A stretch of DNA of 64,000 bases from assembly GCA_965287045.1 (NCBI GenBank), contig OZ336878.1, forward strand, positions 110,422,001-110,486,000, given 5' to 3'. The stretch is from Carcharhinus amblyrhynchos (taxonomy: Eukaryota). Below the pieces are notes generated by a model. That model saw nothing but the letters and a program-made list of their open reading frames with translations, was not told the origin of the DNA and ran no database searches. Shown piece by piece: positions 2,603 to 51,059 of the stretch (its first letter is position 1; every line of letters starts with the position of its first letter). Both the position numbers and the translations under genes were made by a program.

Positions 2603-2645
2603 ATGCTATGCAATAGAATCGTTTGGTCATTGCTGTTGTTCTCTG
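2603..2645 (+). CDS. NCR3: NKp30/NCR3-like gene A, signal peptide exon (MLCNRIVWSLLLFS-G)
   Basis: gccATG at 2603, hydrophobic leader, phase-1 donor G|gtaagt at 2645/2646, acceptor ccacag| at 2588; in frame with V exon at 5457. Confidence 0.85.
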
Positions 2646-2689
2646 GTAAGTAATCTGCACCCGGGCTCTCTCATTTGTCTATGAATAAA

Positions 2690-3130
2690 CGTATGTACAC
2701 ACACGCATACCCAGAGTTACACATCCACACAGATACTTGTTATCGAGGTTTATGCACCAATATATACATATATATCTACTTATATTAGAAACAAATATTT
2801 AAATATTTCACGCAGAAGCGTCGACACACACATCTGTAAAGATATCTATATTATTCAGATGCGTACTTCATATAGAGGTATAAATGCATACATATAAACA
2901 TATTGCACAAACACACATCCACACGCACAGATACGTACGCACACATACTCCCACATGTATGCACACACATACATGTACACAAACGAACACACACATATAT
3001 CAACATATACACACATACACTCAGGCACGCACGGACACATCCACACACTCAAACGCACACACACACACACACGGGCACATACATCAACACACTCTCCCAC
3101 ACACAGACATACACACAAGCACACACACAC
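2690..3130. repeat. Degenerate (CA)n/(CATA)n simple repeat
   Basis: Visible acacac/atacac runs; paralog at about 24000-24565. Confidence 0.9.
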
Positions 3131-3625
3131 TGAAGCCCCTCATACCTAGAACCGTTCTCGTAAATCTTTTTCGCAATGTCTTCAATCCATTCAAATCATT
3201 TTTGGGATGCCGGAACAGCGTGTGGGGAGAGATTGGGTCAGTTCGGATCACAGAAGAGTTTAGATGGAGCTTAGACAAAGGTAGGGCGATCTCATAAATA
3301 CCGATAATATTCTAGCAGGACTTGACAGGGTAGATGCAGGAAGGGATATTCCCGATGTGGGGTGTCCAGAACCATGGGTCACAGCCTAAGGACACAGAGT
3401 AAACATTTTAGGTCTGAGATGAGGAGGAAGTTCTTCAATCAGAGAGTGGTGAGCCCGTGGACTTCGCTGGCACAGAAAGCACAGATATAACTCTTGAGGC
3501 TAAAAGTAGAGGAGGGGCGGGAATAGGGTACTGAGTTGGATGATCAGCAATTAATATAATGAATGATAGGAAAGGCTGGAAGGGTTGAATTTAGTACTCC
3601 TGCCCCTATTTTATATGTTCCTATG
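3131..3625. mobile_element. CR1 LINE 3' fragment with inverted 5' piece
   Basis: About 3131-3245 is minus-strand CR1 (KRFTRxxxGMRG); about 3250-3625 is plus-strand CR1 3' end; same structure at about 24583-25098. Confidence 0.7.
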
Positions 3626-4137
3626 TCTGTAAAGTGCGATGGCCAAAATGTTATTTTACACAGGGTTTACATAACTTCTGTGCCCCATTAATAAATGCTG
3701 TCTATTTCATTAACAGCCGCCTCCTCCCCATTCTGCCACCTTCAATGACTTATGCACATACACATCGGGGTGGCTCTGTTCCTACAGAGTAGGACCCTTC
3801 ATTTTTCTCTTCTCCCTTCGTGTTTGTTCTACCAGAACGAATCACTTCACAATTCTCTGCGTTAAATTAAATCTCCCATTTGACCCCCGATTCCAGCAAA
3901 CTGTCCATATGCCATTTCGAACTCCGCCACTATCCTCATCGCCCTTCACAATGCTTTCAAATTTTTAATGCTCCACAATTTTAGAAAATGGTGCCCTGAG
4001 AATCAAGGTCATTTATCTATGCAACGTCACAGGTTTCTTATTCCTTGTCGCTCTTTGGCGATTGTGCAAAGACGGAGCTACCACTCCGCCTCGCATATAA
4101 AGCTCGGAGCAACAATGTAGCGTGGCGCGACTATTGC

Positions 4138-4180
4138 ATGTTTACCGGAGTTACCGACTCCAGAGTTACAGTCTACCAAG
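4138..4180 (+). pseudogene. Truncated relic of the V-exon 5' end with dead acceptor (AG to CG)
   Basis: atgtttaccggagttaccgactccagagttacagtc matches atgtttacag|gagttactgactctggagttacagtc at the V exon start (27326 onward). Confidence 0.7.
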
Positions 4181-4811
4181 CAAGGATAGAGAATGATAAG
4201 AATTGTTGACCCTGTTTCCCTCTTTACGATTATGTGGACATTTTAATTTGTCTTTATATGCACAAGAAGAGTCTGGCTCAAAAAAAAGGACAGGTAACCA
4301 CTAAGACTTAATATTTTCGACTCCCTGGCTGGAATGTATACCTTGAGTGTGCTTGAACCGTGCTGAAAAAGTGCCCGATTTTCCTACAATTTCGAATTCT
4401 AATTTATCACCAGTTTTTTATTTACATACGCGCCTCATTTGTAACTTAGGCTCCCAGCTAGTGTAAGGTGGCATTTGCTTTAAAGCGTAATATTCACGCT
4501 TCTGACCTGCTTTCGGGAACACTGTGGAGCCAATGAAATATTTGCAAGTAGAGGCTTCAGTTGTTCGGCAGTAGCTGCCGCCAGCGCCAGTTGAAACGTA
4601 TTGTAGTCAATTCCCATTAAATGAAGGGCAGCTTCAGCCTCGTTGCTCCTCTTTATTTGTGGTTTTGGCTGAGGGGTAGAAAGAAAAGTCTCAGAAAGCA
4701 GACCCGAAGGTAGATTGAACATCAGAAATAAAGCCGGAAAATATCACTCGGAATTCAGGCGGTACTCAATGTACATTCAGGTCGGGCAATGGCTGGGGAG
4801 AAACAGGGAGA

Positions 4812-4945
4812 CCGGGGGAGAGATTCTCCGGCCTCCAAGCAGTGTGATTCTGGCCGGCGGGTGGTGGAGCGTTGTTTACCAGCGGATGAAAAATATCCCA
4901 TTGACCATGCAGCAAGAAACCAGCAGGAGAATCCCGCCAAAGAAT
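4812..4945. mobile_element. Short MITE-like element with imperfect terminal inverted repeats
   Basis: gggggagattctcc ... ggagaatcccgcc; the paralog at about 26281-26830 carries a SINE insertion. Confidence 0.45.
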
Positions 4946-4984
4946 GGAGCGGCCAGGACCTTGTAGCCTTAAGTGTTAATTTTA

Positions 4985-5272
4985 CTTATTAATTTCAAAG
5001 AAGTCTTACATTAACACTGCAATGAAGTTACTGTGGAAAGCCCTCAGTCGCCACACTCCGACGCCTGTTCGGGTACACTGACGGAGAATTTAGCACGGCC
5101 AATGCACCCTAACCAGCACATCTTTCAGATTGTAGGAGGAAACCGGAGCACCCGGAGGAAACCCACGCAGACACGGGGACAAGGTGCAGAATCCGCACAG
5201 ACAGTGACCTAAGCCGGGAATCGAACCCGGGTCCCTAGCACTGTGAGGCAGCAGCTAACCACTGCGTCACCA
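4985..5272 (-). mobile_element. SINE with HE1-like head and alternative tail (family B)
   Basis: Reverse complement of HE1-type head plus tail gtgtggcgact..gggcttt.cacagtaacttcattgcagtgttaatgtaag. Confidence 0.8.
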
Positions 5273-5456
5273 TGTCATAAATCAATGACCCTTCTTCAGA
5301 AAACTGAAGCGTTAAAATGACCCGTTGCGCGACTGAGCTTCTTGTTGCTGTCAGCCCATTGCTGATATCCATTTCAGAGCCCAGTGTTTCTGTAACTCAA
5401 AACCAACAATGTGGAGTGGCCTGACTGTTGATGAGGGTATAAATTTATATTTACAG

Positions 5457-5810
5457 GAGTTACTGACTCTGGAGTTACAGTCAAGCAAACACCGAACTCT
5501 GTTAGTGTTAAAGAAGGCGACGCCATCCATCTGTATTGTAGCTTCAGCGAGAATGCGACCGATTCAAGAAACAGAGCTATTGGTTCAGTCACTTGGTATA
5601 AAGATTTCCGAACCTGTGAAGTCCGCAACAACTGCAGAGAATATATCGGACGTGTTCAGAATTCTGATGTATCTTCCTTCCGCGAATTCAGAAACGCATC
5701 CATATCGATAACCAATGTGACCCTGAACGACACAGGGAAGTATTACTGTGAGGTGGAGCTTGTGATCGGCGTAAAGGGGACGGGAGAAGGAACAGATGTC
5801 ACAGTAAATC
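5457..5810 (+). CDS. NCR3: NKp30/NCR3-like gene A, single VJ-type IgV domain exon
   Basis: ttacag| ... C|gtgagt, 354 nt, phase 1/1, open. VKQTP..VKEGDAIHLYC..RAIGSVTWYK..EVRN..YIGRV..ASISITNVTLNDTGKYYCEVE..GTGEGTDVTV; AIGSVTW, EVRN and GTGxGT motifs match human NKp30. Confidence 0.9.
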
Positions 5811-7792
5811 GTGAGTTTGTGTTGCACCTGTAGCCTCACATTCCTTACAAATTGACACGTAAATGGGAGCTAAGGATAATTAATCCACCCCCAGATTGAA
5901 AGTCCCCCATGCTGGGTCTTGCCCACACAAATTGAATGCTGACGGGATCGGATGCAACCCTCAGGGTTTCACTCTATCCGGGTTTACTATGTTTCTACAA
6001 TAGTGGAGAAGAATTCTGGACCAGGTATAAAGCACAGTCACAACACCATGCAATGGTTTCAGCCCCCTGTGTCTGTGCGTGCTTGTTGTACAAGCTCACC
6101 TCTAAAGTAACACAATGTGCCCCAATCCCTAGCACTTTTCCGAAACCGTATCATATTGTACTTTGAACGCTCGATCCTTAATTAATTCACTTTTAAAATT
6201 CAGAACTAGCTGCCTCCAACACACTCTGAACCAGTGGATTCCAGATCCTAACCACTCAGTGCATGAAATGAATGCTTTATTTCCCTCATGCCCTTGTTGG
6301 CAGATTACCTGAAGTCCATCTCATCTCCTTATCGACTCTATCATAATAGGGAACAGTTTAACTCTAACTACTCTGTCCAGACCCTCGTGCATTTATTGCC
6401 CATCCCATTTTTTTTATTGAATTCAAATTCCACCACTTGCCATGTTGGGATTCGAACCCTGGTCCCCAGAACATTAATTGAATTTCAGGATTAATAGTCA
6501 CCTAGATAGGCATAAGTATTAAAGCTATAAATTCATGTTGCATTCGGCAAAAACACTCAGCTGCTGTTACATAAACACGAACATAGCAAAATAGGAGCAG
6601 TAATAGTTTATCGCTGGATTGTGGATCCAACTTCACATCCCGCCTGCCTACCATAACCCCGATTCCCTTGTTAACCACGACCACATTACAGTGGAATGGG
6701 TGGAAGTGCACAAACTTCATTTCTAGAATAATCCTAACGTAAAAAAGTGACAGAAAAGTAAACTTGGTTGGATATCCTTTCTGCATTATTTACTGTCACT
6801 TGACGACAATACTTGCCACTAGGGAATCATCATTCCAAGAATTTGAGCAAGACAAGTCAGAATAGAAAGGAGGATTCCAGTTAGGCGAGGATTCACCAGA
6901 CCATTCTCTTTCTATATGTCCGATATCAAGATACGGTATTGGCGAAATAGGCAAACAAATTATTGGAACACACTTTCCCCTCCACCAGCAGAAATTAAAA
7001 CAAGGCAGGAACATAGATTGTCATTTGTTGTCGCAACGAAACTGAAGACATTCCAGCCATTTTTATAGTTGGGACATTCATTGTGTACAGTTGGGTGCTG
7101 AGTCAGAACTCGAGATATCCCCAGGGTTGGCAAAATCCAGCAATAAATATTCAGGCTCCAGCTACTGGAAAATAAGTAATTTATGTGTACGCCAAACAAA
7201 TTCGAGAAAGTGGTGAGGGGGGGGGGGGGGCCGGGGGGGCGAGAGGGGCGGTGGAGGGGTACTGGAAAAGAAATAATTTATTTGTATGCCAAACAAATTC
7301 AAGAAAGAGGTGGGGAGGGGGTGCGAGAGGGGTAGTGGAGGGGTGGGGTAGTGCGGGCGCGGGGAGAGAGAGAGTTGTGCAGAACATTGTACAACAGCTC
7401 ATTTCACCATCCCCCTAACACTCCACTAAACGATCCGCGAGGAAATCTTGTGTTCACCGAACTGGCACGTTCTATCGGCTTTATCTGCTCACCATCTCTC
7501 TGCACCAGCGCTCTTGTCTCTCACCCTCAGTTAGTTTGCTTTCAACTAAAATGTACGACCAGCAACGGCCATCACCCAAACACAAATAGGGATGGTGGCT
7601 GACACATTATTTTGACTTTTCTGCTCATTTGCTCGGTGATCTGTGCACCGAGGTTTGAAATTCATCTTGCGGTTTCTCAACTGAAGCCCAGAATACCTGC
7701 ACCACCTCCACCCCCCTCCTCCTCCCCACTTCCCATCAAAAACACAGATGGGAAGAAAAAACATTTTTTTTGTTGCTGTTTTCTCTCTAAAG

Positions 7793-7930
7793 ATCATGTT
7801 GATTCTGAAGTAACAACACCTCCAAGTCAATGGAACACTTATCTGCTTATTTTCTCAGTGTTGGCTTTTGTGGTACTTGCTGTCATCCTGACTAAACTAA
7901 TTTATATTCTGCAATGCTGTAGACCACCAG
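7793..7930 (+). CDS. NCR3: Gene A stalk/transmembrane exon (HHVDSEVTTPPSQWNTYLLIFSVLAFVVLAVILTKLIYILQCCRPP-G)
   Basis: ttctctctaaag| acceptor, CAG|gtaatt donor, 138 nt, phase 1/1, in frame with V exon, hydrophobic span. Confidence 0.85.
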
Positions 7931-8129: not shown

Positions 8130-8370
8130 GCTAATTTATTAGCCACAAGTAAGGCTCCCATTAACACTGCAATAAAGTTACTGCGAAATTCCCCTAGTCG
8201 TCACAGCCCGGTTCATGTTCGGGTCAATGCACTTAACCAGCACGTCTTTCAGAATGTGGGAGGAAACCCGCAGGGAGACTCCACACAGTCACCCAAGCTG
8301 GGAATCGAACTTGGGTCCCTGGCGCGGTGAAGCAGCGGTGCTAACCACTGTGCTACCATGCCGCCCATGC
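8130..8370 (-). mobile_element. SINE family B
   Basis: Same head and tail motifs as 4985-5272. Confidence 0.75.
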
Positions 8371-10143: not shown

Positions 10144-10611
10144 GTCGCTTTAATTCGGAAGGGACATCGCTTGCAAATCAAGGGAACGTTTATCGGCTCA
10201 TAGCGTCAGCGTTGGTGCTAGTATTGCTGGCATTCATCTTTCGGACGGCTCGGTGGCACAGTGGTTAACACGGCTGCCTTACAGCTCCAGCGACCGGGGT
10301 TCGTATTCCAGTCTTGGGCGACCGTCTGTAGAGTTTGCACGTTCTCCCCGTATCTGCGTGGGTTTCCTCCGGGTGCGCCGGTTTCCTCCCAGACTCCAAA
10401 GACGTGTGGATTACATGGATTGGCCATGCTAAATTGACCCTTAGTATCAACGGGATTAAGCATGGTAAATACTTGGGATTATGGGTATAGAGCCTGGGTG
10501 GGATTGTTGTTAGTGCAGGGTCGATGGGCTGAATGGCCTTCTTCTGCACTGTAGGGTTCAATAAATTCTATTCTATTTTCAAATTTCCTCCTCACTGCTG
10601 CAGACCTCTCG
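10144..10611 (+). pseudogene. Divergent paralogous TM exon (RFNSEGTSLANQGNVYRLIASALVLVLLAFIF..HCCRPL) interrupted by a SINE; donor mutated
   Basis: tttctctctgtag| acceptor; upstream intron resembles 7470-7790; after the SINE, tgctgcagacctctcg|ctaattat matches tgctgtagaccaccag|gtaattat. Confidence 0.8.
10243..10576 (+). mobile_element. Full-length HE1-type SINE inserted in the pseudo-TM exon
   Basis: Complete head-to-tail SINE motifs. Confidence 0.9.
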
Positions 10612-14668: not shown

Positions 14669-14905
14669 GGCGGAGTCATGTTGGAAAACTATGATTTATG
14701 AGAAGCTGAACCTCAGTCAAACAGCCACCCTCCTGATGCGATTGTGTGCAAGACAACGAGGTCATGCGTACAAAGCAAAAACACATAGCGAGAGGAGAGG
14801 TGTCACTCCCGGACAGCAACGGAGAATCTCAATTGCAGACATTTTATAAATTGTAACCGGATCTAGAGGCGGCTATTAGCATCAACAGAAATCGCTTTGA
14901 TGCTT
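14669..14905 (+). pseudogene. Decayed paralog of the ITIM cytoplasmic exon (TMIYEKLNLS..SLPDSNGES), frameshifted and internally deleted
   Basis: ttgcag| acceptor; aligns by eye with 41712-41867 and then jumps to 41992-42060. Confidence 0.75.
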
Positions 14906-23915: not shown

Positions 23916-23958
23916 ATGCTATGCAATCGAATCGTTTGGTCATTGTTGTTGCTCTCTG
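23916..23958 (+). CDS. NCR3: NKp30/NCR3-like gene B, signal peptide exon (MLCNRIVWSLLLLS-G)
   Basis: ccacag| acceptor at 23901, gccATG, G|gtaagt donor, phase 1. Confidence 0.85.
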
Positions 23959-25587: not shown

Positions 25588-25630
25588 ATGTTTACCGGAG
25601 TTACCGACTCTAGAGTTACAGTCTACCAAG
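25588..25630 (+). pseudogene. Second copy of the truncated V-exon 5' relic
   Basis: atgtttaccggagttaccgactctagagttacagtc. Confidence 0.7.
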
Positions 25631-27160: not shown

Positions 27161-27335
27161 ATAAATCGATGACCCTTCTTCAGAAAACTGAAGCGTTAAA
27201 ATGACCCGTTGCGCGACTGAACTGCTTGTTGCTGTTAGCTGTGATATCCATTTCAGAGCCCAGTGTTTCTGTAACTCAAAACCAACAATGTGAAGTGGCC
27301 TGACTGTTAATGAGGATATAAATTTATGTTTACAG

Positions 27336-27689
27336 GAGTTACTGACTCTGGAGTTACAGTCAAGCAGACACCGAACTCTGTTAGTGTTAAAGAAGGCGAC
27401 ACCATCCACCTGTATTGTAGCTTCAGCGAGATTGCGACCGATTCAAGAAACGGAGCTATTGGTTCAGCCACTTGGTATAAAGATTTCCGAACCTGTGAAG
27501 TCTGCCACAACTGCACAGAATATATCGGACGTGTTCAGAATTCTGATGTATCTTCCTTCCGCGAATTCAGAAACGCATCCATATCAATAACCAATGTGAC
27601 CCTGAACGACACAGGGAAGTATTACTGTGAGGTGGAGCTTGTGTTCGGCGTAAAGGGGACCGGAGAAGGAACAGATGTCACAGTAAATC
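27336..27689 (+). CDS. NCR3: NKp30/NCR3-like gene B, VJ-type IgV exon
   Basis: ttacag| ... C|gtgagt, 354 nt, open (ORF 27326-27712), canonical Cys/Trp/DxGxYYC/GxGT. Confidence 0.9.
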
Positions 27690-29374
27690 GTGAGTTTGTG
27701 TTGCACCTGTAGCCTCACATTCTTTCCAAATTGACACGTAAATGGGAACTAGGGATAATTAATCCACCCGCAGATTGAAAGTCCCCCATGCTGGGTCTTG
27801 CCCACACAAATTGAATGCTGACGAGATCGGATGCAATCCTCGGGATTTCACTCTGTCCGGGTTTGCTATGTTTCTACAATAGTGGAGGAGAATTCTGGAC
27901 CAGGTATAAAGCACAGTCACAACACCATACAATGGTTTCAGCCCCCTGTGTCTGTGCATGCTTGTTGTGCAAGCTCATTTCTGGAGCAACACAATGTGCC
28001 CCAATCCCTGGCACTTTTCTTAAACAGTATCACATTCTATTTTGAACGTTAGATCCTTATTTACTTCTCTGTTAAAACCCAGAACTAGTTATCTCCAACA
28101 CAGTCTGAACGAGTGGATTCCAGATCCTAACCACTCAGTGCGTGAAATGAATGCTTTATCTCCCTCGTGCCCTTGTTGGCGGATCACCTGAAGTCCATCT
28201 CATCTCCTTCTCGACACTATTGTAATAGTTTGACTCCAACTAGTCTGCCCAGACCCTCGTGATTGTGCACGCCTCTATGATATCTCTTTTTAACCTCTCG
28301 CCTTTGAGGAGAAACAGGCCTAGAGGGTTCTCCAATCTATCTACAAGCTGAAGTCTCTCAAACCTGGAAATATTTTGATAAATCGTTTCTGCATACTCTC
28401 CAAAGCTTTAACATCGTTTTGGAAAGTTTGGCAGCCAGAATTGGGAACAATGCCCCAGTTGAGGCCGAACTGGCGTTTAAGTTTTTTAAAAAATCGTCAT
28501 AGCTTCCTTACTTCTGCATTCAGTGCCTCCGTTCATAAATTCTTAAATGCAGTATGCTTGCAAACCACTTTCTCAACGCACCCTGGTAACTCCATCGATT
28601 TCCGCACATATACCCTCATAGGGGATTTTCACAATAACTTCATTGCAGTGTTAATGTAAGCCTACTTGTGGCACTAATATGTTTTAAAAATTCATTCGTG
28701 GGGCATGGGTGTCTCTGGCCAGGCCAGCATTTATTGCCCGCCCCTAGTTGCCATTGAGAAGATGGTGTTGGTCTGCCTCTTGAATGGCTGCAGTCCATGA
28801 GAGCAGACTGCAGTCCATGGCATTAACTTAACTTTAACTCATATATTTCCTGTCCCTCCATGTTTCCCGCCCTCCTGACAATTCAGGGATGCATCTCAAC
28901 TGTCCTTGGGGAACTTTCAACTTCAAGTGAGTTGCCCTATTGAATACTGCACTTTACAATTTTTTTGCTACCATATCCAGACACTTTGTTAAGTCATGTT
29001 TAATTCCGACTTTGACATCATTGTCTTCCTTATTAATAACACATACAAAACATTAAGTTGTTCCTCAGCCATTCCTTATACTTCCATGCGTAATTTTTAG
29101 TCCCTAATCGACCTGATACTTGCCCTAACCACCGGTTTCTACTAAAGTGCTTGTAGACTTTTGGATTCCTTCATGTTAGCTTCCAATCACTCCTTGTGGT
29201 CTCCCTTCGCCTCTTTGGTTTCCTTTTCATTCCCTCTATGTTCCTATTTTCAATCTGCTTCTTATTTGTATTGATAATAAATATAGAATAGACAATCAAC
29301 CTTAATTTACTCTCTTCCTCATCATGCAGCGAGTGCTAATGTAGTGTACCCTGATTTTTACCCTTGTGGAACTT

Positions 29375-29770
29375 TATTTTTATTCATTCGTTGGACCTGG
29401 GCCTCGCTGCTTGGTCAGCATTTATTGCCCATCCCAAGTTGCCCTTGGGAAGGTGGTGGTGAACTGCCCTGTTGAAACGCAGAATGGCTTGCTCGGCCAT
29501 TTCAGAGGGAAGTTGAGAGTCAACCACGTTGCTGTGGCTCTGGAGTCACATATTGGCCAGAACAGGCAAGGACGGCAGATTTCCTCCCCCAAAGAATATT
29601 AGTGAACCAGATGGGGTTTTCCAACAATCGACAATGGTTTCATGGTCATCAGTGCATTCTTAATTGCTTTTTTTTATTGAATTCAAATTCCACCACCTGC
29701 TATGGTGGAATTCGAACCCTGGTCCCCAGTACAATAACTGGGTTTCAGGATTAATAGTCATGTAGGTAGG
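29375..29770 (-). mobile_element. SINE family C
   Basis: cagcatttattgcccatccc ... ggaattcgaaccc in reverse. Confidence 0.75.
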
Positions 29771-30935
29771 CCTAGGTATTAAAGTTACAAGTTAATGTTG
29801 CATTCGGCAAAAATACCCAGCTTCTGTTACATAAACACGAAATGGGAACAGTAACAGGTTATCATTGGATTGTGGATCCAACTTCACATCCCGCCTGCCC
29901 ACCATAATCCTGATTCCCTTGTTAACCACGACTAATTACAGCGGAATGGGTGAAACTGTACGAACTTCATTTCTAGAATAATCCTAATATTAAAAAAAGT
30001 GACAGAAAAGTAAACTTGATTTGGGCGATTCTTATTTTGCATTATTTACTGTCACGTGACGGCAATGCTTGCCATTAGGGAATCATCATTCCAAGAATTT
30101 GAACGAGACAAGTCAGAATAGAAAGGAGGATTTCAGTTAGGCGAGGATTCACCAGACCATTTTCTTTCTATATGTCCGATATCAAGATACCGTATTGGCG
30201 AAATAGGCAAACAAAATATTGGAACACACTTTCCTTTCCACCAGCAGAAATTAAAACAAAGCAGCAAGAACATAGATTGTCATTTGCTGTAACAACGAAG
30301 CTGAAGACATTCCAGCCATTTTTATATTTGGGATATTCAGTATGCCCAGCTGGCTGCTGAGTCAGAACTCGAAATATCTCCAGGGTTGGCAAAACACAGC
30401 AATAAGAATTCAGCCTGCAGCAAATGGAAAATAAATAATTTATTTGTACGCCCAGAAATACGAGAGAGGGGTGTGGGGGCGGTTGGAGAGGTGGAAGGGG
30501 GGAAGGGATACAGTTGTGCAGAACATTGTGCATCTGTTCACTTCACATCCCCCTACAATCAATCAAACAATCTCCGAGGAAATCTTGTATTCGTGGAACT
30601 GGTGCGTTCTAAAGGCTTTATCTGCTCACTATCTGTCTGCCGTTCGGCGCCAATGCTCTTGGTTCTCACCCTAAGTTACTTTGCTTTCAACTAAAATGTA
30701 CGACCAGCAATGGTTATCACCCAAACACAAATGGGGATGGTGGTTGACACGTTATTTTGACTTTTCTGCTCATTAGCTTGGGGCTCTGTGCATCGAGGTG
30801 CTGAAACTCACCTGCGGTTTTTCAACTGAAGTATGAAGCTCAGAATAGCTCCCCCACCCCCACACCCACCCCCCATCAAAAACACAGTAGCGGATGGAAA
30901 GAAAGACATGGTTTACTGTTGTTTGCTTTCTAAAG

Positions 30936-31068
30936 GTCATGTTGATTCTGAAGTGACAACACCGCCAAGCCAATGGAACACATATCTGCTTATTTTCTCC
31001 GTGCTGGCTTTTGTGGCACTCGTTCTCATCCTAAGTAATTTATATTCTGCAATGCAGGGGACCACCAG
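30936..31068 (+). CDS. NCR3: Gene B stalk/TM exon with a 5-bp deletion; donor at 31068 (frameshifted) or cryptic in-frame donor at 31034
   Basis: ctttctaaag| acceptor; RHVDSEVTTPPSQWNTYLLIFSVLAFVALVLIL; 133 nt versus 138 nt in gene A. Confidence 0.85.
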
Positions 31069-31299
31069 GTAATTATTCTGAATTCAGTCTATTTTACAAT
31101 GTGGAATGAGAACTTAACACCTATTTCTTTCCTGCAAGGCATGAATGACTATATGTCTGAAGAATAGCATGGCTGATCTATGGCTTACATTGTTATAAAC
31201 CTACAGTGTCTCCACAATAATCAGCATGATTGATAATTGCAGTAATACCAGCATTTCCATGAATATTCTTATATTGCAAAAGGAATTTTTAGTTAACTT

Positions 31300-37856: not shown

Positions 37857-37888
37857 GTAAAAGAAATGGAGCCCAAACAGTAAAAGAG
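37857..37888 (+). CDS. NCR3: Gene B first cytoplasmic micro-exon (xKRNGAQTVKE)
   Basis: catttcatag| acceptor, GAG|gtacgt donor, 32 nt; converts phase 1 to phase 0 exactly as needed to join the TM exon to the ITIM exon. Confidence 0.65.
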
Positions 37889-41690: not shown

Positions 41691-41711
41691 ATTCTTTTGC
41701 GCTAATTTAAG

Positions 41712-41966
41712 GAGGAAGGCACGTCGGAAACTCTCGTCTATGCAAAGCTGAACATCAGCCACCAGCCTACTGACAGGACTGTGCATGAGAGGGCCAGGGC
41801 ACCGGTTCAGAATAAAAAGCCAAGAGAGACTCGGGCGGCGCCACTCCCAGAGAGCAGTGGAGAACCTGTTGTATACGCGCCATTGAAGGAGTCAATTCCG
41901 TTGGAGCCCGTGGAGACCCGACGAAGGAATGAAGAGCAAACCGTATATGGGAGAGTGAGAGTGTAG
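41712..41966 (+). CDS. NCR3: Gene B terminal cytoplasmic exon with ITIM (LVYAKL), ITIM (VVYAPL) and ITSM (TVYGRV)
   Basis: tttaag| acceptor, 84 open codons plus TAG: EEGTSETLVYAKLNISH..GEPVVYAPLKES..EEQTVYGRVRV*. Confidence 0.85.
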   Translation, partial: EEGTSETLVYAKLNISHQPTDRTVHERARAPVQNKKPRETRAAPLPESSGEPVVYAPLKESIPLEPVETRRRNEEQTVYGRVRV

Positions 41967-48868: not shown

Positions 48869-48914
48869 ATGAATCCCGCTAACCTGCTGTGGACCTCGAT
48901 GCTACTATTCTTTA
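48869..48914 (+). CDS. NCR3: NKp30/NCR3-like gene C, signal peptide exon (MNPANLLWTSMLLFF-T)
   Basis: ttccag|accactgtgaagcaATG mirrors gene B ccacag|acaactgcgaagccATG; A|gtaagt phase-1 donor. Confidence 0.85.
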
Positions 48915-48999
48915 GTAAGTGATTTTCTTTAGTACTACCTATTGTGCTGTCCGGCAATTTTGCGTAACCAGAGTCTAGAAGTATATGGGAATACGAATT

Positions 49000-49290
49000 G
49001 GGAGCAAGTGCAGGTCAGTTGACCCCGCGAGCCTGTCCTGCCAATCAATAAATTCATGGTTGATTTGATTGTAACCTCAGTCCCACATTCCTCCCTATCA
49101 CTGATAACCTTTTACCCCCATATTAATCAAGAATCTATCTAGCCCTGCCTTAAAGATATTCAAAGACTTTGCTTCCACTGTCTCTTAAGGAGGTGAATGT
49201 CAGAGATCCAAGACCCTCTCAGAGAAAAGAAACTTTTCCTCATCTGTGTCTGAAATGGGCGACCCGTTATTTTTGAAGCGTGACCAGCAA
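49000..49290 (-). mobile_element. CR1 3' fragment
   Basis: Reverse-complement CR1 3' UTR/ORF2 end motifs. Confidence 0.7.
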
Positions 49291-49419
49291 ATGATGAAGT
49301 AGAGAATCATTTGATAAAATTAATTATACGATGTTTGATAATCCGACCGTTGTAGCAAATAATACAGGGAAGCGTTACCTCAGTTTGTACATTAACTGGC
49401 TTCCGCATTTGTCTTCCAG

Positions 49420-49773
49420 CAACAACTGCTAGCAAGATCAAAGTGTTTCAAGAACCGCCCTCCATTGTGACAACCGAGGGAAAGACAGTCTACCTTCTCT
49501 GCACTTACAGTACATCTCATACTCAACAGAACGGAGCTTTCTCCTGGCACAGGAACACCAAAAATGGAACCGAAGAAACCAGAGTGACAAATAAATCTGA
49601 AAAATACTTGGGTAGGATTTTCGAGGTGGACAGACCATCTTTCAAAGCCAATCAAAACGCTTCTATTGCGATCAAAAACGTGAAACAGGATGACTCAGGC
49701 ATCTATTATTGTCAGGTGGAGATATTATTCGGCGTGAAAGATATTGGACCTGGAACAATACTAACAGTTGAAC
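49420..49773 (+). CDS. NCR3: NKp30/NCR3-like gene C, VJ-type IgV exon
   Basis: gtcttccag| ... C|gtaagt, 354 nt; KVFQEPPSIVTTEGKTVYLLC..GAFSW..YLGRI..ASIAIKNVKQDDSGIYYCQVEILFGVKDIGPGTILTVE. Confidence 0.9.
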
Positions 49774-49819
49774 GTAAGTTTATACAGTTGGTACTAGAAT
49801 AAGAATCCATGTGTTTGCA

Positions 49820-49921
49820 TGTGTGTGTGTGTGTGTGTGTGTTTGTATCTGTGTGTGTGTGTGAGACTGTAGACAGATGGACAAAGGTCGAGAGATATTA
49901 TGGACTCAGAGATTGAAAGAC

Positions 49922-49981
<60 letters not shown>

Positions 49982-50015
49982 GGATGGATCGATGGATCGA
50001 TGGGTAGATAGATTA
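49820..50015. repeat. (GT)n and (GATA)n microsatellites
   Basis: Direct reading: 49820-49862 and 49920-50015. Confidence 0.95.
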
Positions 50016-50604
50016 TAGGTACATACATACATATGTACATAGAAGGAAATTGATTGATAGAATATTTTCATTCCATATTTACTACAAAATGCGTAACCGT
50101 TATAATATTTCAGCAATATATCAGAATGACTATCTCAAAAACACATTTCCCAGCCTCACAGTATGGGGTTGAGTGAGTGGATGCAGATATGCGTCTCACA
50201 AGGCACACAGCTGACATGTATTAAGTATAATGGGTAGCCAAAGAGCACGCATTCGGAGTGGTATTCCATACAGCTAAATGTGTACTAATGATCTTGCTTC
50301 TTAGATCATCTAGTTCGACTTTAATCCTGATGTTGACTTTCTTTTTACTCAATAATTTACCCATTCCTTAATGCCATTGTTACATCATCCAAAACATTGA
50401 CAATGCTTCTTTCTGCTTTAATAAAGGAACTTTTTTTTACAATTTGTTCAGGATGCCATTGAACTAATAAATTAAGTGCATGTTACATAATTCTCTATCG
50501 TGTGTGTGGCAATATAATGAGGCTTTCATTGCACTGATTATTTCGAGATAGTCATCCTCATATATTGCAGAAATATTTTGTAGTAAATATGGACTGAAAG
50601 TATT

Positions 50605-50746
50605 NNNNNNNNNNNNNNNNNNNNNNNNNNNNNNNNNNNNNNNNNNNNNNNNNNNNNNNNNNNNNNNNNNNNNNNNNNNNNNNNNNNNNNNNNNNNNNNN
50701 NNNNNNNNNNNNNNNNNNNNNNNNNNNNNNNNNNNNNNNNNNNNNN
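50605..50746. other. Assembly gap (142 N) in the gene C V-TM intron
   Basis: Run of N. Confidence 1.
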
Positions 50747-50856
50747 CCCACACGAGTGTCTAAGAGAATGGCGAACAAGCTGAGTGAATATTGCGATGAG
50801 CTGCCGGAGTGAATCTAAGAAACTATTTCCTGAATTTAATTGTTACCTTTCTATAG

Positions 50857-51059
50857 ACCAGAAGCAACCCAATAAAAGCGGAGATTCGTTAGCTCGTAAG
50901 CTGATTGTGATGGGAGTGAAACTTGCAGTGTTTGCTGTGTTCATCATTATAACAATATCTTTCGTGCATTTCTACGATTCTCGAGGTTCTCCAGCGTCAT
51001 ATAATTCAGGTCGAGAGGAGATTGATTCATCCTGGAAATGTTACATGGAAATCGGTTAA
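50857..51059 (+). CDS. NCR3: Gene C stalk/TM/short tail exon with intramembrane Lys (LIVMGVKLAVFAVFIIITISFVHF)
   Basis: cctttctatag| acceptor, phase 1, in frame with V exon, open to TAA at 51059. Confidence 0.8.

Follow-up and report, generated by a model that had tools for sequence, protein, structure and literature searches.

Does Carcharhinus amblyrhynchos encode an inhibitory relative of NKp30? The question is raised by an exon in a 64,000-nucleotide stretch of contig C9 (hereafter the window, to which all positions without the prefix C9 refer). The initial annotation had read 41712-41966 as an intact cytoplasmic exon with two ITIMs and a terminal ITSM, attached to an NKp30-like gene. As claimed, the exon is a single open frame of 84 codons ending in TAG. 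The motifs LVYAKL (41733-41750), VVYAPL (41868-41885) and TVYGRV (41940-41957) lie exactly where they had been placed, and all three tyrosines of the exon sit within them. Two ITIMs plus one ITSM appeared in 6 of 200,000 residue shuffles of the tail exon, and at least three motifs in 18 of 200,000. Among the 150 stop-free segments of at least 84 aa in the six frames of the window, only the tail exon carries three motifs within 84 aa.

We consider it extremely improbable that the motifs arose by chance or that the exon comes from an unrelated gene. Such an origin would agree with the searches made with the tail alone, as a word-indexed protein search returned no homolog among 107 candidates and Pfam no family. 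Searched in its own genome, the exon matched solely itself, since paralogous tails are too divergent for that search; they were found with queries other than the tail exon. However, the shuffle result speaks against chance, and the tail aligns directly to the tails of orthologs matched through the V domain (E about 1e-8). The same three-exon module of transmembrane (TM) exon, micro-exon and tail also recurs in paralogs. Judged by sequence, then, the tail exon is indeed the terminal exon of an NCR3/NKp30-like gene, and orthologs and paralogs both bear out its identity as a cytoplasmic ITIM tail.

This gene, which we call copy 2, has the exon order leader, V, TM, 32-nt micro-exon and tail (Table 1). 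Its V exon, one of three complete V exons in the window, matches Pfam V-set (E 1e-12) and has human NKp30 as its top PDB sequence match (E 7.6e-9). NKp30 chains rank 1, 3, 4 and 6 among the 50 PDB matches listed, and the CEACAM1 rows between them score through summed weak stretches. SIRP-alpha gave weaker matches, and no PD-1 or CD28 chain was found among the 50 listed. The V exon is 66% identical to the Heterodontus NCR3-like protein XP_067865303.1 and 57% identical to Chiloscyllium XP_043533738.1, and each of these proteins matches the leader or V, the TM and the tail exons of the window in order. Counterparts of the 32-nt micro-exon are present in all three downstream inhibitory-type paralogs, and a 23-nt probe from it has one match in the window. 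As the definition of the NCR3 family we used a single non-rearranging VJ-type V domain, after portions of PMC12227049 and PMC11599192; in copy 2 one exon encodes the single VJ-type V domain, which includes a J-like GxG strand. Both PMC12227049 and PMC10751288 present NCR3 as a VJ gene that does not rearrange and is linked to the MHC. The assignment to an NKp30/NCR3-like family is thus backed by orthologs and paralogs. Each duplicate also has, ahead of its true V exon, a 36-nt relic of a V-exon start that lacks an AG acceptor (4138-4179 and 25588-25629).

Table 1. Genes and exons of the NCR3-like locus, in window positions
Feature	Position	Strand	Remarks
Leader exon, copy 1 (upstream duplicate)	2603..2645	+	
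V exon, copy 1	5457..5810	+	12/351 coding nt differ from copy 2 (8 non-synonymous)
TM exon, copy 1	7793..7930	+	Intact, 138 nt
Orphan TM exon of older paralog	10144..10242	+	Truncated by a repeat present 16 times in the window
Dead paralogous tail exon	14669..14860	+	65% identity to the 41712-41966 exon in 171 aligned columns; carries a frameshift and stops after 10 codons
Leader exon, copy 2	23916..23958	+	14 codons + 1 nt, phase 1; matches leader of P0006
VJ-type IgV exon, copy 2, NKp30-like	27336..27689	+	Pfam V-set, NKp30 and ortholog matches
Stalk + uncharged TM exon, copy 2	30936..31068	+	133 nt, exits in phase 2
32-nt micro-exon, copy 2	37857..37888	+	AG/GT-bounded, phase 1 to 0
Terminal cytoplasmic exon, copy 2	41712..41966	+	ITIM, ITIM and ITSM-type motifs; aligns with tails of P0001, P0006, P0053, P0038 and others
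Activating-type NCR3-like neighbour	48869..51059	+	Leader 48869-48914, V 49420-49773, TM + short tail 50857-51059

In copy 2, the exon with the ITIM consensus is cytoplasmic and follows an uncharged TM. The TM cores of both copies lack the Arg or Lys of activating NKp30, and the short motif-free tail of the latter is replaced by the 84-residue exon with its three tyrosine motifs. The tail acceptor at 41709-41714 is a tandem NAGNAG (AAG/GAG), so that a splice variant of one residue is possible; the downstream paralogs have the second AG only.

An ortholog alignment had been proposed as a check on the conservation of the motifs. We aligned the tail with those of eight public single-V, long-tailed proteins from seven shark and ray species, hand-picked from the best 150 matches. 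The first tyrosine is kept in six of the nine tails, the second in eight and the third in seven, two of the gene models ending before the third tyrosine. Two of the three tyrosines are gone from the horn shark ortholog, where only the last motif survives; in the bamboo shark model, proline occupies Y+3 of the second motif. The threonine that makes the last motif an ITSM occurs at Y-2 in two of the seven aligned tails that reach this position (copy 2 and P0001) and in none of the three cluster paralogs. Taken together, these ten homologous tails carry two Thr, six Val or Ile, one Phe and one Ala at this site. The TxYxxV/I motif is present in the exon as claimed, but with so few threonines the suggestion of a switchable receptor is weak. 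ITIM-type motifs also occur in NCR3-like models of newt, axolotl and lungfish.

The exon is intact; its reading-frame link to the gene in front of it is not. The TM exon of copy 2 is 133 nt long versus 138 nt in copy 1, and the alignment shows one 5-nt gap, near 31027. The deletion is derived, since the TM exon of both orthologs keeps the longer end seen in copy 1. The exon leaves in phase 2, and V, TM and micro-exon together run into a TAA at 37858-37860, 12 residues past the hydrophobic core. If the normal donor is used, translation ends on entering the micro-exon and does not reach the tail; skipping the micro-exon also stops the frame early, leaving only alternative joins to bring the tail into frame with V and TM. 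The initial annotation had let the micro-exon supply the phase bridge from the V exon at 27336 into the tail. The micro-exon is real in the sequence, and its change from phase 1 to 0 would work with a 138-nt TM exon, but not with the 133-nt one. For copy 2 in this assembly, the reading as an intact inhibitory receptor is not supported, as its TM exon is frameshifted ahead of the tail. The premature stop lies 28 nt before the last junction, and the mRNA would escape nonsense-mediated decay by the 50-55 nt rule. The shifted TM frame also creates a YxxM motif (LYSAM; 31035-31068) four residues past the hydrophobic core, which is probably a chance occurrence too near the membrane to signal.

The deletion is present in reads and not only in the assembly, because a contig of sequencing run X1 over 30953-31197 reproduces the deleted form exactly, with 0 differences. 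The contig, from a run that may represent the source sample, disfavours an assembly error as the origin of the deletion, although such contigs give no zygosity and the state of the second haplotype is not readable from them. The comparison with sequencing runs covered 27250-31270, the stretch with the V and TM exons of copy 2. A contig of run X5, from a relative, has 601 letters over 606 reference bases, with 17 substitutions and 15 gap letters; counted over the whole span, this amounts to 5 inserted and 10 omitted letters. The contig belongs to the copy-2 type, as copy 1 differs there by 65 mismatches and 78 gap letters. These numbers hint that the relative may be without the TM deletion. A run X8 contig over the TM exon, with 5 extra letters and 17 other letters, was rejected as evidence on the deletion. 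It may be copy 1, because its differences are near those of copy 1 versus copy 2 (15 mismatches, 5 gaps). Among the rows listed for runs X7 and X8, picked as candidate RNA runs and both covering intron as well as exon, no exon-exon joint was found.

Could copy 2 nevertheless be a working inhibitory receptor? A cryptic donor after 31034 would give a 99-nt TM exon and a frame that is open from V to the natural stop. The product, a precursor of roughly 260 aa, would keep the 17-residue hydrophobic core followed by basic residues, and all three motifs behind a membrane-proximal segment 11 residues shorter. The undecayed tail would suit a gene still in use, and the GT of this donor is found in copy 2 but not in copy 1. 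However, any cryptic donor has a one in three chance of being in frame, and the change that created the GT would be a conservative Leu-to-Val in the old frame, which would need no special explanation. The cryptic donor is also much weaker than the intact donor 34 nt downstream. By U1 pairing, a crude measure of donor strength, it matches the U1 complement at 6 of 11 positions (-4.0 kcal/mol), versus 10 of 11 (-8.1 kcal/mol) for the normal donor at 31068. This does not settle the matter, because the V-exon donors are weak as well (6 of 11 positions, -5.8 kcal/mol) yet must be used. On balance, we regard use of the cryptic donor as unlikely.

Far less probable is an unrecognised small exon between 31068 and 37857 that corrects the phase. 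The Chiloscyllium model is about 12 residues longer in the TM-to-tail region, and four of the eight AG/GT candidates in this intron have the 3n+1 length. Against homologous peptides, however, these candidates score at background (best 15), and three of them use one donor inside a dispersed repeat. Moreover, an exon correcting a young deletion would itself have to be new. Across the three intervals scanned for extra exons, which gave 7, 8 and 8 AG/GT candidates, none resembled homologous peptides.

The tail might instead serve copy 1, a leader-V-TM duplicate spanning 2603-7930. The V domains of the two copies are 93% identical. Around the V exon, 27200-27800 and 5316-5921 are 95% identical, and the flanking blocks 77-90%; the higher identity at the V exon suggests gene conversion or V-exon constraint, as far as the sequences alone can tell. 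Copy 1 has an intact TM exon with only a dead tail behind it. An intact tail of its own was not found in the window, nor a micro-exon among the 7 AG/GT candidates scanned. The orphan TM exon at 10144 and the frameshifted tail at 14669 are remains of an older paralog. If the leader at 2603, the V exon at 5457 and the TM exon at 7793 were spliced over about 30 kb to the micro-exon and tail, the join would be open for 258 codons to the natural stop. Such a transcript must, however, pass the AATAAA at 8171 and others, and skip the V and TM exons of copy 2, whose splice sites are intact. Read-through of the copy 1 TM exon into its intron would give a simple short-tailed product, and none of the public models aligned shows tail sharing. 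We therefore consider a tail shared with copy 1 improbable. Slightly more doubtful still is a fully rewired locus, in which the tail-less copy 1 borrows the ITIM/ITSM exon by the 30-kb splice and copy 2 is a tail-less decoy for the same ligand. If true, this would be a variable-cassette, shared-tail NK receptor locus set in an ancient cluster of paired NKp30 genes on the MHC chromosome of the shark.

The reading that we prefer, with moderate confidence, is that the main transcript of copy 2 encodes a membrane-anchored V domain without the tail, through the 5-nt TM frameshift, making it a decoy or a decaying allele. We infer donor use, splicing pattern and expression of copy 2 from its sequence. 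No decay is seen in its tail and micro-exon, which fits a recent lesion and, equally, continued use. The exon is an ITIM-type tail of a paired NCR3-like family, in this assembly probably on a recently frameshifted allele. Receptors with ITIMs generally recruit SHP-1/SHP-2 through the phosphorylated tail. An intact tail of this type would normally do so with SHP-1/SHP-2-type phosphatases and damp lymphocyte activation. In copy 2, the 5-nt deletion shifts the frame and would cut the tail off, leaving a likely non-signalling receptor with its V domain anchored in the membrane. In an intact member, the V domain would bind the ligand and a Src-family kinase would phosphorylate the tail. The SHP-1/SHP-2 so recruited would counter the ITAM signal of charged-TM neighbours. 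The coupling of NCRs to adaptors is treated in part of PMC6514059. The same part mentions one study in which the ITIM of NKp44-1 failed to recruit SHP-1/2, and an ITIM consensus is therefore no guarantee of function.

Potential activating partners lie nearby. The neighbouring gene at 48869-51059 has a lysine in its TM, and TM and tail share one exon. Its V exon at 49420 groups with nurse shark NCR3 (QTT61904.1; 63% identity, support 100/99), unlike the V exon of copy 2, which falls in a separate clade. A nurse shark NCR3 series (MT914154-914161) is named in a portion of PMC12227049. The tree of V domains has 37 rows, after two intended rows without the anchor motif were dropped, and its deep forks are open; a marsupial NCR3 row (P0117) sits on a long branch at one of the open forks. 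The 264 kb around the window contain 12 V-exon matches, six Lys/Arg TM exons and four ITIM-type tails. Three intact inhibitory-type paralogs lie 60-150 kb downstream. In all three, an uncharged TM, a 32-nt micro-exon and a tail read through as one open frame; the tails have 2, 3 and 3 ITIM-type motifs but lack an ITSM. A single residue separates the V exons at C9:110.507 and 110.537 Mb; an ITIM module comes after the first and an Arg-TM exon after the second, a linkage inferred from their order. From its sequence, the cluster likely pairs activating with inhibitory receptors.

The genome holds at least 25 related V exons, all on contig C9, as are all 82 of the MHC class I matches. The latter lie at 89.6-101.1 Mb and the window at 110.42-110.49 Mb, a distance of 9-21 Mb that makes this a chromosome-level linkage only. 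A search of the genome for MHC class II beta gave no match.

Copy 2 resembles human NKp30 in its single VJ-type V exon, and here MHC class I lies on the same contig. In human NKp30 the TM carries a charged residue and a signalling tail is absent (PMC6514059); copy 2, in contrast, has an uncharged TM and a tail with three tyrosines. Isoform C of NKp30 has an ITIM, as stated in a section of one review (PMC12272517). Of the 11 residues that contact B7-H6 in Table II of PMC3135353, copy 2 shares 5 and copy 1 shares 6 in the alignment with NKp30. To go by these residues, the ligand may be B7-H6-like.

The closest relatives are ITIM-tailed elasmobranch models: XP_043533738.1 (Chiloscyllium), XP_067865303.1 and XP_067865595.1 (Heterodontus), XP_041068169.1 (Carcharodon), XP_059827210.1 (Hypanus) and XP_072920858.1 (Hemitrygon). 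They share the arrangement of leader, V, TM, short linker and three-tyrosine tail, and have the nearest V domains in the tree. These models are in frame, whereas copy 2 has the TM frameshift and a partial upstream duplicate, and in most of them Y-2 of the last motif is Val or Ile, not Thr. PD-1 and CD28HL3 are members of the CD28 family with ITIM and ITSM tails, as given in part of PMC11599192. Copy 2 shares with them a single V domain, an uncharged TM and an ITIM followed by a terminal ITSM-type motif, and by analogy a SHP-based mode of action is likely. It differs from them in its three tyrosines and its place in a multigene cluster on the MHC contig. KIR, LILR, SIRP, CD300 and teleost NITR form clusters of charged-TM and ITIM genes with near-identical ectodomains and frequent pseudogenes. 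Unlike these families, the shark cluster is built on an NCR3 V exon.

Mammals keep one activating NKp30, whereas the shark NCR3-like cluster includes adaptor-coupled as well as ITIM-bearing members. In Xenopus, both types are reportedly represented among MHC-linked V genes. We know of no clear KIR or Ly49 orthologs in early jawed vertebrates, and the cluster bears on how NK cells were restrained in these animals. The ITIM-tailed NCR3-like type is itself already present in public gene models of sharks, rays, newt, axolotl and lungfish. In the literature, screened by title and start of abstract, we found no paper on ITIM-bearing shark NCR3 genes; Kinlein 2021 and Flajnik 2012 were outside its scope, and the supplements of PMC11599192 and PMC10751288 may list such genes. 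Being frameshifted here, copy 2 represents the type poorly. The three intact downstream paralogs are better test objects, as is the pair whose V exons differ by one residue.

Several further members of the family were seen on the same contig. The regions C9:110506759-110522830 and 110536494-110540973 (L033-L036) look like a textbook activating/inhibitory pair. Two inhibitory-type NCR3-like genes with three ITIM-type motifs each lie at C9:110564441-110577211 and 110600621-110614022. In the second of these, the GT found at the proximal TM donor of its paralogs is missing, and a donor 24 nt beyond would serve instead. At C9:110552356-110552778, a V exon interrupted by an in-frame stop adds a dead gene to the cluster. 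Another 15 related V-exon matches (L005, L007-L013, L017-L023) form a second cluster at C9:101.5-102.15 Mb, adjoining a large MHC class I array at 100.4-101.1 Mb. Several of its V exons are paired about 2 kb apart, which may represent two-V receptors.
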